A stretch of 64,000 nucleotides of DNA from assembly GCA_965287045.1 (NCBI GenBank), contig OZ336885.1, positions 60,636,001 to 60,700,000 of the forward strand, written 5' to 3'. Below, piece after piece: positions 4,505 to 63,844 of this stretch (its first letter is position 1; each line of letters begins with the position of its first letter). The notes below the pieces were generated by a model. That model saw only the letters and a program-made list of their open reading frames with translations. It was not told where the DNA came from and did no database searches. The translations under genes and the position numbers were made by a program. Source of the DNA: Carcharhinus amblyrhynchos (Eukaryota).

Positions 4505-4531
4505 CTTTATCTTTTCTGCCCAACTTTAGTT
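4505..4531 (-). CDS. 27-nt micro-exon, (E)LKLGRKDK
   Basis: ttattaaatacag|AACTAAAGTTGGGCAGAAAAGATAAAG|gtaaga; open only in phase 1. Confidence 0.7.
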
Positions 4532-9086: not shown

Positions 9087-9122
9087 CTTTATCTGAGCAA
9101 ATTCCCTTCAGAGTTTCCAGTT
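9087..9122 (-). CDS. 36-nt micro-exon, (E)LETLKGICSDK
   Basis: ttccgtttgtttcag|AACTGGAAACTCTGAAGGGAATTTGCTCAGATAAAG|gtgatt. Confidence 0.75.
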
Positions 9123-12460: not shown

Positions 12461-13219
12461 CTAAAACCACCTGATTCGTTGTAATTTTTTCGTTTTGTTA
12501 CTAATCTTAATATGTAATATTATTTTCAAGGCCCTGCAGTGACCATATATACTTTTATTTGTATCAGTGAAAAGAACACATGCAAGCACAATAAGAGGTG
12601 ATCATTGCACGCACGTGGAAAAAAAAACTGTGCTAAAAATAAAGATGTATAATAACATAGCCACATTTACCATTCATGTGATTTCGCAGAGCGGCCTCTA
12701 ATTGAATTATAAAGAAAAATGCAATGACATCAAAAAGGCACAGGTATGAACAAAGTAAAACTCAGCATAGATGCCTTTACAATTTGTCAACATAATTTCA
12801 CATACGAAATACACAAACGGGTAACTGTAAATTCAATTGGTAGTTTCCAACGCATTATTAATATATATCAACTCCTAATGTCAGTGATAATAAGATTTCT
12901 GTGCTCCAAGAAATTCTTGTTTTTTTTACCCATCTCCACTTACCCTGTTTCAACCTCCACATCTAAAGGTCCCGAAAGAAAACAAAAAAAGATCCACCTC
13001 GACACTGCCAGTGGTCATTAAGCTGTTCCCAAGGAGCATAACATGTTTAAGAGATAGGATCAGGTGAATTCTGGTAAACAATTTAACCAGATAGCAATTG
13101 TTCTCAACTCAAATTTCACTTGTTTGATTACATAGAGTAAGTGCAACATTTCTTTTATTTGGCAGCAATATAGAGATCATGTTTTATTCTAGCTGTGGTT
13201 GCCCAACTATAGGACTAAC

Positions 13220-13255
13220 CCGCATCTTGCAAACTCGTCTTCAAAGCGTGGATAT
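13220..13255 (-). CDS. 36-nt micro-exon, (D)IHALKTSLQDA
   Basis: ttatttaattacag|ATATCCACGCTTTGAAGACGAGTTTGCAAGATGCGG|gttagt; close paralog of 20096-20131. Confidence 0.8.
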
Positions 13256-19467: not shown

Positions 19468-19494
19468 CTTTCTCTTTCTGAGTTAGCTCTTTGT
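19468..19494 (-). CDS. 27-nt micro-exon, (D)KELTQKEK
   Basis: aacgttttag|ACAAAGAGCTAACTCAGAAAGAGAAAG|gtaagt. Confidence 0.8.
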
Positions 19495-20095
19495 CTAAAA
19501 CGTTGGAAGGTTTACATTGCCAATTAATGCCAGTGGGGACAAGAAGATAACTGAGGTATGCAAAAAGAATTTAGAAACACTTCGTTTTGGAAAAAAAAAC
19601 TACATTACTGGAGCCGTGTTAATAAAATTGGTCAAGGTAACATATAACCGAAATAAGAAACACGAGTGCAATCTCTAAGGAATGTTTCCTAACATTTAGC
19701 GATGGAGTCAAGTAGATGAAATCGCCTCCAAAACCAATTATAGCTACTGAATAAATCTTTCTGCATAAAATATGCCTTTCACCACCTTTTTTGCTTCCAT
19801 TCACTTAAAGGGATTTTTTTTAAAATTCACAGATGAACCAATCTCCATCACTTTTGCTACATTGCACTCGACATTTAGAATTGAAACAGACGTAAGAATG
19901 AAATAAGCAATGAGCCATGATGCTTACGTACTTGATCACCCATTGTAACTTCCTGAATATGATCGCCGAATGATGAATCAAACTAAGTAATTAATGAGGG
20001 CAAACGATCGCCGCTTCATTTTCACAGCCGATGGTGAATAATAAAAATACCCTATTTACATTTGGGTGCAGAATGACAAACTGATGTCTATTTAC

Positions 20096-20131
20096 CTACG
20101 TCTTGCAGACTCTTCTTTAAAGTCTCTATCT
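20096..20131 (-). CDS. 36-nt micro-exon, (E)IETLKKSLQDV
   Basis: aatttgttgcag|AGATAGAGACTTTAAAGAAGAGTCTGCAAGACGTAG|gtaaat. Confidence 0.8.
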
Positions 20132-21049: not shown

Positions 21050-21622
21050 TTCACAGGAGCCTGCCTTTCTTAAACGCCTAGGTGCTAGGGTGTACTGGAT
21101 GTCAGGGAGAGGTAGTATTTCCGGTGGGAGAACATGTAGCGCCCTTTTCAGGGCTGTTTGTCCATCCTTTGTCCCCACCTGGCACTCAGCTCTCACCTGT
21201 GGCTCCCTGTAGCTGTTTGCATGTGACAGCGGCCACACCCTGGGCAACGGCTTCGAGAAGCTGGCTAAACCAAGTGAGAGTAGCCGACGGGTCTCAACCC
21301 TCCGTGAGACAGGGAGATGCCTATCCCAGCATGTGAAGACAGACTCCAATGGATTGAGCGGACGGGACGAATGGAAGATCCAACGGTCAGGAAGGCGGTT
21401 CTGTGCAAGCATTGTGGAACGCAAAGAGCAGGACAAGGTACAGAAGATGTCCTGGTCATCCATTGCGTCTCGTGCGATCTCCAGCCATCTTGACTCTTGT
21501 CTTGCCAGTGGATCCAGATGGGATTTGGGAAGAGAGAGAGAGGCTGATGCTGCACAACTCTCCCTCACTTTAATCCAAATCAAATGCTAGTCTTAACACC
21601 ACCATCATCATCATCATCGTCG
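21050..21622 (+). mobile_element. Non-autonomous RTE-derived element with (CAT)n tail
   Basis: GC/CpG-rich 570-bp block ending caccatcatcatcatcatc; motifs ctctcacctgtggctcc, cagcggccacacc, ggctaaacca, agcatgtgaagac recalled from RTE 5'UTR-derived SINE-like elements. Confidence 0.6.
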
Positions 21623-21627
21623 TCCTG

Positions 21628-22490
21628 TTCAACTGAAGGATGTGGACAGATTAGGAGAGTGGGCAAATAAGTGGCAGATGGAATACAATGTGGAAAAGTG
21701 TGAGGTTATGCATTGTGGAAGGAGGAATCGAAGCGCAGGCTATTTTCTAAATGGGGAATTGCTAACGAAATCAGACGCACAAAGAGATTTGGGTGTCCTT
21801 ATTCAAGATTCCTTTTACCTTGACGTGCAAGTTCAGCCAACAGTTAGGAAGGCAAGTGCAATGGCCGCATTCATGATCGGAGGGTTCCGATAGAAGAGCA
21901 ATGATGTACTTCTAAAACTGTATAAGGCTCAGGTGAGAACCCATTTGGAGTACTGCGAGTTAGGCCCCACATGTTGGGAAGGATGTGATGGCCTTGGAAA
22001 GGATCCAGAGGAGGTTTACAAGAAGGATCCCTGGAATGAAGAGTTTGTCATATGAGGAACGGTTGAGGATTCTGGGTCTGTACTCGTTGGAATTTAGAAG
22101 GATGAGGGGGGATCTTATTGAAACTTACAGGATAATGCGAGGCCTGGATGGAGTGGACGTGGAGTGCATGCTTCCGCTGGTAGGGAGAAAAAAGGTCCTG
22201 ATGGCCTAACCTCAGACTAAAGGGACGATCCTTTAAACGAGAGATGATGAGAAATTTATTAAGCCAGAGAGTGGTGAATATGCGGAACTCTGCCGCAGAA
22301 GGCTGTGGAGGCCAGGTGATTAAATGTCTTTAAGACAGGGATAGATAGGTTCTTGATGAATAAGGGGATTGGGGTTATGCAGAAAAGGCAGTAGAATGAG
22401 GATGGGAAAAATATCAGCCATGATTGAATGGTGGAGCAGACTCGATGGGTCGAGGGGCCTAATTGTGCTGAATATCTTGTGGTCTTATAT
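21628..22490 (+). mobile_element. CR1 LINE 3' fragment
   Basis: DRLGEWANKWQMEYNVEKCEVMH; ALERIQRRFTRRIPG...GDLIETY. Confidence 0.93.
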
Positions 22491-22625
22491 CTGAAAGGTA
22501 TTGAGAAATCTTTCTGTGGTGTAAATGTTGCATGATACGGATGCATTCAACCACGCGTATAACATGAAATATGAAACCTCACTCTCCACATGAAATTTAA
22601 AGTGCTGCCAGGGTTGTGGATGGAA

Positions 22626-24580: not shown

Positions 24581-24607
24581 CCTTCAGTTTCTGATTGAAC
24601 GTCACTT
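24581..24607 (-). CDS. 27-nt micro-exon, (E)VTFNQKLK
   Basis: ttctttgaacag|AAGTGACGTTCAATCAGAAACTGAAGG|gtgagt. Confidence 0.7.
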
Positions 24608-28035: not shown

Positions 28036-28071
28036 CTAAAGCTAGGCTGTCCGTCCTCAGTTTCTCTAACT
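28036..28071 (-). CDS. 36-nt micro-exon, (E)LEKLRTDSLAL
   Basis: acttatttcacag|AGTTAGAGAAACTGAGGACGGACAGCCTAGCTTTAG|gttagt. Confidence 0.75.
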
Positions 28072-30744: not shown

Positions 30745-30771
30745 CTCTCATTTTCTCAAGACTTATTTCGT
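30745..30771 (-). CDS. 27-nt micro-exon, (D)EISLEKMR
   Basis: aatttaaacag|ACGAAATAAGTCTTGAGAAAATGAGAG|gtatgt. Confidence 0.65.
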
Positions 30772-32680: not shown

Positions 32681-32716
32681 CTAACTTATTAATTTTCTTC
32701 TGCAAAGCTTCCAGCT
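32681..32716 (-). CDS. 36-nt micro-exon, (E)LEALQKKINKL
   Basis: ggtttgttttcag|AGCTGGAAGCTTTGCAGAAGAAAATTAATAAGTTAG|gtgagt. Confidence 0.8.
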   Translation of the reverse strand, partial: SWKLCRRKLIS

Positions 32717-40865: not shown

Positions 40866-40892
40866 CTGATTCTTTTTCCTCTATGTCTTCCT
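40866..40892 (-). CDS. 27-nt micro-exon, (E)EDIEEKES
   Basis: ctttccgttgtttcgcag|AGGAAGACATAGAGGAAAAAGAATCAG|gtaaat. Confidence 0.75.
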
Positions 40893-43748: not shown

Positions 43749-43775
43749 TGCAGTTTTGCAAAAGAATTTTGAATT
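43749..43775 (-). CDS. 27-nt micro-exon, (E)FKILLQNC if phase 1
   Basis: cctcttttttag|AATTCAAAATTCTTTTGCAAAACTGCA|gtaagt; open in all frames; start resembles 62143-62169. Confidence 0.65.
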
Positions 43776-45580: not shown

Positions 45581-45607
45581 CTTTCTCCTTCTGCTTTTGG
45601 TTTTGTT
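45581..45607 (-). CDS. 27-nt micro-exon, (E)QNQKQKEK
   Basis: tttatctttctcatag|AACAAAACCAAAAGCAGAAGGAGAAAG|gtaaga. Confidence 0.75.
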
Positions 45608-47430: not shown

Positions 47431-47825
47431 TCACTGCTGTAATGTTTGGAAATAACAGAAAAATGATCATTTTTGCAAGGCGGAAATAGTTCTCATCTCT
47501 GAGGAATCACAACAACAACATCAAAGAGGAGTACCTCGCCCCATAATCTGTAAAACATTTATGTGAAATAGTCTATCCTGCTCATCAGAAACTACTGGTT
47601 TCTAAATACAAAATAAATCCCTGACACTTAGTCTAAAATCATTTATCTATTTATCTAACTAAGAGAAAGCAGATTCACCGAACTATTAACAGACTCAACA
47701 GAACAAGTTCTAATGGCATGCTGTTCCAGTTAATACAATTCGCACTCATTAACAAAAAATAAATAATTTAACTACTCTCTAAATTGCGTTTTCTGGAGTA
47801 TTTTGGGCCTTCTCTGTGGATTCTT

Positions 47826-48130
47826 CTTTCTTCTTTTGTACCATTACTGTCTAGATGGGGCTTTGAGTTAAGCGCTGTCAGCTATGACATGGTAGTTGCT
47901 CTCTCATTTTGTCTCACTGCTCCCTTCTTTTATACCTGTGATGCCATATCAATATTTCCCACAAAAGAATTGGTCCTCGGTTGTCAAAACCATTAGGTTT
48001 AAATTTAATATTTTCTTGGTATCTAACTGCCTAATTCAAATTGATCGTCTAAACAAAAAAGAAATCAAAAAGCTGAAAGCTTCTTGCCTTGGTAACACTG
48101 CTGTTTATTCTTTTGAAAAAGAAAATTTCA
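47826..48130 (+). repeat. About 305-bp direct repeat, copy 1
   Basis: Highly similar to 48930-49233. Confidence 0.95.
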
Positions 48131-48929
48131 TTTTGGGCAGCCTGTGCGCTTGAATTTTTAAACTCTAACCCCAGAGAATCACTTTAACAGAACAATGCAA
48201 TGCTTTCTCCTCTTAGCATTTTACAATTTTACAAACATCAAGTTCTAGCATTCTAATTTTCAATCTACAATTTCTCTACTCAGCTTCACAAAACCGTATG
48301 TTCAACAAGTTGTTGCGGACTAGATGGACAAAGTGCCCCCTTCAGCACTGTCGGAATTCTAACATCCTATGCTCCTAGAAACAATTGTGTTGGTGCTGAG
48401 TCACTGTCACAAACTCTCAGTTATATTTAGCTCAAACCTTTAGCAGAATAGTTACCCAAAGGGTGGTAAATGTTTCATAATGTCTTCGATACTGTGTTGC
48501 TGAGGCTGGAAATTCCTATTGATATTAGTCAGAAATTCAGCAAATTTAAATGAAGGCTATTAAATGGAATTAATATGATTTAGGGCTAACAAGGTAAGGC
48601 TAGCACCTGTAATGTTGGCTATGAAAGTAATTGAAAGATGTAAAGAACACTTCACACTTGGGAAGAAAATGTACCACCACGGTTGGTTTGGCCGCATATG
48701 TGGAGCCATGCCAAAGCAATGTGGTTCAGTCTTAACTATTCCTTTTGAGATACTAAGATCTTTCAAAGCTGTTAAGTTAACCAATAATGCATTATATGAC
48801 TTGAAAGGATAATTAAGATCGGTGTAGGCACTAGGTTCGTAGATGCAAATAGGACACCGACTTGTATACCATGGAAAGGTTTCTTTACTAAAACGTAGCC
48901 AATTGCACAAAATTGAGAGAACTGTCCTA

Positions 48930-49233
48930 CTTTCTTCTTTGGTACCATTACTGTCTAGATGGGTCTTTGAGTTAAGCGCTGTCAGCTATGACGGTGGAAG
49001 TTGCTCTCTCATTTTGTCTCACTGCCCCTTTCTTTTATGCCTGTGATGCCATATCAATATTTCCCACAAAAGGATTGGTCCTAGGTTGTCAAAACCATTG
49101 GTTTAAACTTAATATGTTCTTGGCATCTAACTGCCTAATTCAAATTGATTATCTAAACAAAAAAAATCAGAAAGGCTGAAAGCCCCTTGCCTTGGTAACA
49201 CTGCTGTTTAGTCTTTTGAAAAAGAAAGTTTCA
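48930..49233 (+). repeat. About 305-bp direct repeat, copy 2
   Basis: Highly similar to 47826-48130. Confidence 0.95.
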
Positions 49234-56670: not shown

Positions 56671-56706
56671 CTGATTCTTCCAACAATTCCTTCAGCCTTA
56701 CCACCT
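56671..56706 (-). CDS. 36-nt micro-exon, (E)VVRLKELLEES
   Basis: ctatttattttcag|AGGTGGTAAGGCTGAAGGAATTGTTGGAAGAATCAG|gtaatt. Confidence 0.75.
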
Positions 56707-59880: not shown

Positions 59881-59907
59881 CATTTTCCGTTTCCTCCAGC
59901 TCGGATG
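59881..59907 (-). CDS. 27-nt micro-exon, (A)SELEETEN
   Basis: tgtttcgtccacag|CATCCGAGCTGGAGGAAACGGAAAATG|gtaaag. Confidence 0.7.
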
Positions 59908-62142: not shown

Positions 62143-62169
62143 AGCCTTGTTCAGCACATCTCTTGAGTT
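62143..62169 (-). CDS. 27-nt micro-exon, (E)LKRCAEQG
   Basis: attattttag|AACTCAAGAGATGTGCTGAACAAGGCT|gtaagt. Confidence 0.7.
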
Positions 62170-63559: not shown

Positions 63560-63586
63560 CTTTTTCTTTTTGAGACAAGGCATTAT
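63560..63586 (-). CDS. 27-nt micro-exon, (N/D)NALSQKEK
   Basis: cctttcctcctcggccag|ATAATGCCTTGTCTCAAAAAGAAAAAG|gtagga. Confidence 0.75.
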
Positions 63587-63808: not shown

Positions 63809-63844
63809 TCTTTTCAGTAAGTGCGTCTTTCAAGGCAGAGCATT
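63809..63844 (-). CDS. 36-nt micro-exon, (E)CSALKDALTEK
   Basis: ttttctttcattacag|AATGCTCTGCCTTGAAAGACGCACTTACTGAAAAGA|gtgagc. Confidence 0.75.

Follow-up and report, generated by a model that had tools for sequence, protein, structure and literature searches.

A 36+27-nt exon pair as one repeat of a long microexon array that probably encodes a coiled-coil rod with a terminal B30.2 domain in Carcharhinus amblyrhynchos

The microexon array of gene A

The window, a stretch of 64,000 nt of contig OZ336885.1 (C16; 60,636,001-60,700,000) in the 2.9-Gb genome of C. amblyrhynchos, is the inner part of a minus-strand gene that we call gene A; its coordinates were extended past both ends for outlying features, negative values being on the downstream side of the gene. 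The array of gene A runs from 61,034,835 down to 60,463,382 of C16 (571 kb, ∼120 predicted microexons, 3,681 coding nt), which places its end near -172.6 kb. Irregular short exons of 24 or 27 nt follow on the same strand down to 60,452,150, and a terminal B30.2/PRY-SPRY exon (60,449,331-60,448,811, minus strand; PF00622, E 2.6e-15) is found at -186.7 kb, 187 kb beyond the window. Because a second B30.2 exon at 448 kb (extended coordinates) closes the upstream gene B, the span of gene A is ∼586 kb. The array comprises 105 confident exons (49 of 36 nt and 56 of 27 nt), or 120 when weaker ones are added, and 17 of gene A's exons lie in the window.

These exons are all on the minus strand and are either of a long type (L, 36 nt) or of a short type (S, 27 nt), with one exception. 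In the order of transcription they begin with an L exon at 63809..63844 and an S exon at 63560..63586, followed by S (59881..59907), L (56671..56706), S (45581..45607), a shortened long-type exon of 27 nt that ends in Cys and forms a predicted stutter (class C, 43749..43775; leave-one-out score 25.8), S (40866..40892), L (32681..32716), S (30745..30771), L (28036..28071) and S (24581..24607). The last of them is directly upstream of the pair under study, formed by an L exon at 20096..20131 (heptad positions g-a-b-c-d-e-f-g-a-b-c-d) and an S exon at 19468..19494 (e-f-g-a-b-c-d-e-f). An L exon at 13220..13255 is directly downstream, and the window closes with a weakly scoring, divergent S exon (12671..12697), L (9087..9122) and S (4505..4531). 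A candidate of the long type with 27 nt, flanked by S exons on both sides (62143..62169, minus strand), is doubtful; it scored below the plus-strand null and was excluded from the final counts.

The phase-1 translation of the pair is as given in the initial annotation, and both members are predicted exons with AG/GT ends: on the minus strand the 36-nt exon (20131-20096) is preceded by cag and followed by gtaaat, and the 27-nt exon (19494-19468) by tag and gtaagt, respectively. A second pair (63844-63809 and 63586-63560) also reads as had been written, including the Asn from a split codon. The splice scores of the first pair are mid-range, at the 38th and 47th percentile among 241 array exons. 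It had been considered that a 25-nt exon (19928..19952, minus strand) might be placed between the two members, which was not upheld: its splice score is in the lowest range of the array exons (2nd percentile), its inclusion inside the spliced pair would cause a frameshift and a stop after 17 residues, and the G of its donor (19927) is altered in each of the four sequencing runs of relatives that were used out of five (two samples, two related organisms). These four runs are contiguous across the intron of the pair and contain no joints, so they behave as DNA and are uninformative on splicing. In one relative, organism B, both changes in the 36-nt exon alter a residue, among the differences listed.

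The array exon calls rest on profiles trained on the array itself, and a scan of 1.26 Mb of contiguous sequence with these profiles gave 212 minus-strand matches with a score >15 vs 3 on the plus strand; only one plus-strand match was obtained in the scan for the confident exon set of gene A. A generic splice scan in which coding was ignored (-180 to +963 kb) peaked at two lengths on the minus strand, 27 nt with 57 candidates and 36 nt with 59, each other length between 15 and 60 nt giving 1-11, and the plus strand 3 of 27 nt and 5 of 36 nt. Phase 1 is open in 54 of these 57 and 57 of these 59 splice-only candidates, which carry hydrophobic residues at positions 2, 5, 9, 12, and 16. Exons of the same class, taken with their flanks, are only ∼48% identical, yet length, phase, frame, and core residues are kept. 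A stretch of 54 kb in gene A (255-309 kb) contains no typical exon; owing to this gap and to 14 irregular junctions among 119, gene A may be two genes or the model may miss exons. No further terminal domain was seen in the gap at 255-303 kb, among the matches listed. A cluster of strong 24-nt Gly/Pro-rich exon candidates with a CpG-rich patch is found at 303,500-309,600 and is followed by 48 kb without typical exons; the rod may have a hinge region here, or one gene may end within what we call gene A.

Some other features were observed in and around the window. An intronic tandem duplication with a period of ∼1.1 kb and pieces 87-95% identical is located at 47,823-49,233, and a high-copy repeat, presumably a LINE fragment judging by its resemblance, at 21,089-22,514 (as many as 54 overlapping matches within 1.06 Mb). 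An exon at -287,937 on the minus strand, with an ATG, a hydrophobic stretch and a strong donor, probably belongs to the next gene downstream; we take it to resemble the first helix of a G-protein-coupled receptor.

Heptad register and its breaks

The 12 residues of an L exon and the 9 of an S exon form a 21-residue unit of three heptads, with a at positions 2, 9, and 16 and d at positions 5, 12, and 19, the last one being mostly Lys (76 of 115 units). Hydrophobic residues are found at positions 2, 5, 9, 12, and 16 in 83, 78, 91, 48, and 89% of cases, and 32 of 34 Cys are at core positions. Acidic g1 (85%) is combined with basic e6 (63%), and basic g15 (43%) with acidic e20 (51%), the acidic first residues being partly imposed by the G/A splice context. 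The array shows a hydrophobic a/d core, complementary g/e charges, and a continuous register, like parallel coiled coils.

By length alone, L and S exons alternate at 83 of the 104 junctions of gene A (mean 52 and maximum 72 in 20,000 shuffles). After adding weaker exons the figure is 105 of 119, which is inflated since gaps between like neighbors were filled, and the alternation is still broken at 14 junctions of the 120-exon model. When spliced in silico, these 120 exons encode 1,227 residues with no stop, with a 3.5-residue amplitude of 0.130 vs 0.077 ± 0.006 in 500 shuffles of exon order, and the rod would be ∼180 nm long if helical throughout. The initial annotation had described a three-heptad 36+27 unit in continuous register from two pairs, and in this spliced model the description holds over ∼120 exons. 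It had also taken the repeat unit to be a two-exon cassette of 63 nt. The 36+27 combination is in fact the basic unit, but the array is better described as an alternation of long-type and short-type exons in which the long type has either 36 or 27 nt, and as a duplicating unit the cassette was not borne out, the clearest recent duplication being a 27-kb block of about a dozen exons (see below). The lengths of introns between L and S and between S and L (p 0.05 in gene A and 0.23 in gene B) give little support to such a cassette. N-glycosylation sequons (8 observed, 8.5 expected) are uninformative.

Long-type exons of 27 nt account for 12 of the 61 in gene A. They make up a third class (C) with the long-type pattern E-L-x-x-L-R-x-K-C, together with a Pro-containing variant, and gave leave-one-out scores of 26-47, with one weak plus-strand match. 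By the rules of coiled coils, two consecutive blocks of nine residues add up to 18 = 11+7, that is a stutter, which is a tolerated discontinuity. The 9-residue long-type exons would in this way build changes of register into the rod, together with a few Pro-containing hinge exons. As the initial annotation had pointed out, skipping a single member would keep the frame but change the heptad phase; the shift would amount to +2 or +5 residues (mod 7). The proposal derived from it, that splicing places kinks in the rod, was not supported as it was put: many apparent 27-27 junctions conceal a shortened long-type exon, so that changes of register sit in the genome itself as predicted stutters or Pro-containing hinges. 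The genomic evidence favors a kept register with built-in breaks over kinks made by splicing. A reading of the 27-27 junctions as nonads with a beta-layer was dropped for many of them once the hidden 27-nt long-type exons had been found; in the trimers described in the cited part of PMC4786415, two-residue insertions turned the helix into a beta-layer.

A gene cluster and its relatives in cartilaginous fishes

Six such genes (A-F) fill 6 Mb of C16. Gene B is located at 61.08-62.19 Mb on the minus strand and gene C at 62.22-63.07 Mb on the plus strand, gene D starts at 63.15 Mb, gene E extends from 63.74 to at least 64.80 Mb, and gene F from 65.81 Mb or before to 66.44 Mb. Genes B and C are head to head within ∼25 kb and perhaps have a common promoter region. 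Beyond gene A there are five B30.2 exons of the same type on C16, that of gene B included, and a seventh one on contig C9, all seven being devoid of stops; four further gene ends of C16 show parts of a common layout of 36-, 21-, and 27-nt exons followed by B30.2. The exon classes of gene A recurred in a survey of 37 samples of 10 kb of C16 and three of C9, plus two contiguous blocks. Matches on the expected strand were present in 27 of the C16 samples, matches on the other strand only in one and none in nine, and two of the three C9 samples contained matches to family exons.

A recent tandem duplication of 27 kb in gene B (493,000-548,000, extended coordinates) includes about a dozen exons and shows 91% identity. 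In nine of its exon pairs 12 nt out of 279 are different (4.3%) vs 9% over the whole block; nine of these 12 differences change an amino acid and three are silent. Constraint at the protein level looks weak, amino-acid change being near neutral in these small samples. From the sequence, the genes may have grown by duplication of multi-exon blocks such as that of gene B. We also observed ∼140 conventional B30.2 exons clustered on C9 (96-112 Mb), C41, C46, C53, and C73, and butyrophilin-type IgV exons on C53, C46, and C9. The C9 member of the family sits within the conventional B30.2 cluster of that contig, which is a possible origin of the family.

A profile search of 1.84 billion proteins, together with look-ups, revealed relatives in Callorhinchus, Leucoraja, Narcine, Scyliorhinus, and Cetorhinus, among which annotation offered a single long model and no more than a small number of short ones. 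NCBI names several of them as TRIM proteins (TRIM21, TRIM7, A33-like), and the names "TRIM39-like" and "nuclear-pore anchor-like" also occur. In a B30.2 tree with a midpoint root, whose rows were chosen by the family profile and are therefore biased towards the family, 14 family rows (the seven genomic ones and relatives) are on one side of a 100/100 branch and 25 butyrophilin, TRIM, and other rows on the other. The family clade spans chimaera, skate, ray, and shark and is apart from chimaera, bony-fish, and ape butyrophilins and from TRIMs. The skate protein XP_055510696 parses into L, S, and C units with a score of 24.6 vs -20 ± 4 for shuffled sequences, and residues 280-900 of Callorhinchus XP_042192744 (1,697 aa), a model that holds runs of L-L-L units, with 62.5 vs -109 ± 12; an unrelated coiled coil of gar is also slightly above its shuffles in this test. 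The predicted structure of the skate protein shows long helices and a B30.2 fold (mean pLDDT 75.6), its top Foldseek match being the B30.2 of TRIM7, and SPRY (PF00622) is the only Pfam domain in the catshark relative.

An atlas entry of 1,579 aa with SPRY (score 0.84, 137 members) is no more than a lead. Two gar proteins combine a repetitive heptad stalk with a conventional B30.2 and are outside the cartilaginous-fish clade; judging by their sequences, gar seems to have acquired a rod with B30.2 independently. We found no published description of a microexon B30.2 rod family in the main texts of openly accessible papers, and these genes apparently constitute an undescribed family of cartilaginous fishes.

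Nature of the protein and alternative readings

All these data make it likely that the pair belongs, as a single repeat, to an array of ∼120 microexons that are spliced mostly together to produce a coiled-coil rod with a terminal B30.2. The ∼120 phase-1 exons, whose co-inclusion we infer, would give a rod of ∼1,230 residues followed by the B30.2 domain. The rod is predicted to be a parallel homo-oligomer of ∼180 nm with a binding head at its end, and the g/e charge pairs and core Cys suggest that it would assemble in register.

Enterophilins are rodent proteins that have a long leucine-zipper heptad run and a B30.2 and are not known to have RING or Ig. They are like the shark genes in these respects and differ in their rod, which is far shorter. 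Enterophilin-1 has been linked with SNX1 in the part of PMC13749957 that we cite. The tail of chicken BG proteins is encoded by 21-nt exons of one heptad each, 13-37 per gene, according to the cited parts of PMC4046983 and PMC5938342. It has in common with the shark genes a long coiled coil in many in-register microexons, a varying exon number, and a gene cluster. However, the chicken BG genes have IgV and transmembrane exons and, as far as these parts go, no B30.2, whereas the shark genes have a B30.2 and no Ig was found; moreover, the shark genes use 36+27 nt (three heptads in two exons), ∼120 or more exons, and 0.6-1.1 Mb. The generic splice scan gave two candidates of the BG-type 21 nt vs the 57 and 59 of 27 and 36 nt. 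BTN3A1 and BTN2A1 also have heptads and then a terminal B30.2 but, in the part of PMC12841164 referred to, only a few heptads, preceded by IgV-IgC-TM. TRIM proteins with PRY-SPRY share a coiled coil and a C-terminal B30.2 fold, but the shark rod is many times longer and is coded by microexons. Neither RING nor B-box was matched in 1.26 Mb including gene A or at the 5' ends of genes B, C, and D, and it must be noted that, for this and for the Ig searches, the first exon of gene A lies outside the exons identified. In summary, the design of the shark gene is like the chicken BG tail and its end like a butyrophilin, and it is a member of neither, nor of TRIM.

Where the rod-plus-B30.2 protein acts is the least certain part. 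At the 5' end of gene B there is a candidate first coding exon (C16:62,193,785-62,193,929, with the exon at 62,193,845, minus strand), with 20 codons and one base; Met-Lys-Thr is followed by a hydrophobic run, the phase-1 donor is strong, and the exon hints at secretion of the gene product. In a scan of both strands of 1.26 Mb for signal peptides, only one of the 40 candidates was outside array exons and had a donor score of at least 10, so the probability that the gene B exon is a chance match is low but not nil. No convincing signal-peptide exon was found for genes A, C, and D, and the first exon of gene A was not found in 399-448 kb by long ORFs, splice scan, or signal-peptide scans. A candidate at 434077 has a start context like that of the gene B exon, but its donor is weak; 0.2% of random 300-nt windows equal the best local alignment near it, which is not significant over 48 kb. 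The core Cys fit an oxidizing compartment, without proving it. We lean, with the balance close to even, towards a secreted or membrane-anchored fibrous protein rather than a cytoplasmic scaffold.

That regulated skipping of single 27- or 36-nt exons acts as a splicing switchboard, giving cell- or tissue-specific kinks or partners, we consider unlikely. Every array exon is frame-neutral, a tandem NAGNAG acceptor occurs in 27 of 241 exons, and splicing varies chicken BG tails according to the part of PMC5938342 cited. Furthermore, NCBI-predicted isoforms differ by single blocks in catshark (9 aa), Narcine (6 and 9 aa), and Callorhinchus (9 and 7 aa), and exon skipping may occur somewhere in the family, these isoforms of three relatives including none that concerns the present pair. 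However, the blocks skipped are mostly irregular and linker-like and come from short paralogue models, the isoforms being only predicted. The genomic alternation, on the other hand, suggests selection for register, and skipping a 36-nt exon equals a two-residue insertion, which is among the most straining for a coiled coil in the cited part of PMC4786415.

We also regard as very unlikely a membrane receptor of the butyrophilin or BG kind, with the rod as its cytoplasmic tail and with Ig and transmembrane exons that escaped detection. The closest solved B30.2 to the family profile is indeed that of BTN3A1 (E 4.8e-32; 1.1e-25 for TRIM21), and heptad microexons, a Trp-containing 27-nt exon and then the B30.2 exon resemble the ends of butyrophilin genes in their general exon layout. 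The Callorhinchus model begins with a hydrophobic segment followed by basic residues; in this model and in that of skate, a hydrophobic start may come from reading through into an intron, an artefact that was shown in the signal-peptide scan. Against this receptor, no Ig exon was matched by three butyrophilin proteins, either in 1.26 Mb including gene A or at the 5' ends of genes B, C, and D, the 32 butyrophilin-type IgV matches of the genome are all on contigs other than C16, the catshark relative has SPRY alone among Pfam domains, and the family B30.2s branch apart from butyrophilins. A genome-wide V-set search, whose best 150 matches are all on other contigs, is uninformative for C16. No transmembrane segment was found for gene A, and the 20-codon hydrophobic exon of gene B is more like a signal peptide. 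The least probable of these alternatives is a decaying or largely unexpressed array, in which exons multiplied in blocks are drifting and only part of the gene is used. The near-neutral ratio of changing to silent differences, a stop in one weakly scoring 36-nt candidate of gene B and in one of gene C, and the missing first exon of gene A would agree with it, but same-class exons keep length, phase, frame, and core residues in spite of their divergence, the duplicated exons differ less than the block containing them, and the family, with its stop-free B30.2 exons, spans chimaeras and elasmobranchs.

Returning to the rod with a terminal B30.2, it is possible, as a tentative extension, that these genes encode giant secreted fiber proteins of cartilaginous fishes, of 1,300 to >2,000 residues, lockable by disulfides and capped by B30.2. 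They would be written in a two-letter 12+9 code over hundreds of exons and 6 Mb, with length variants that hard-wire stutters and hinges and skipping that tunes rod length or bends. Annotation can hardly see genes of 0.6-1.1 Mb that consist almost entirely of exons of 27-36 nt (0.6% coding). The exon code is a natural experiment on how coiled-coil register constrains exon duplication and also on the splicing of >100 consecutive microexons, and very large rod proteins, if present throughout the sharks, rays, and chimaeras, would be a new finding in biology.
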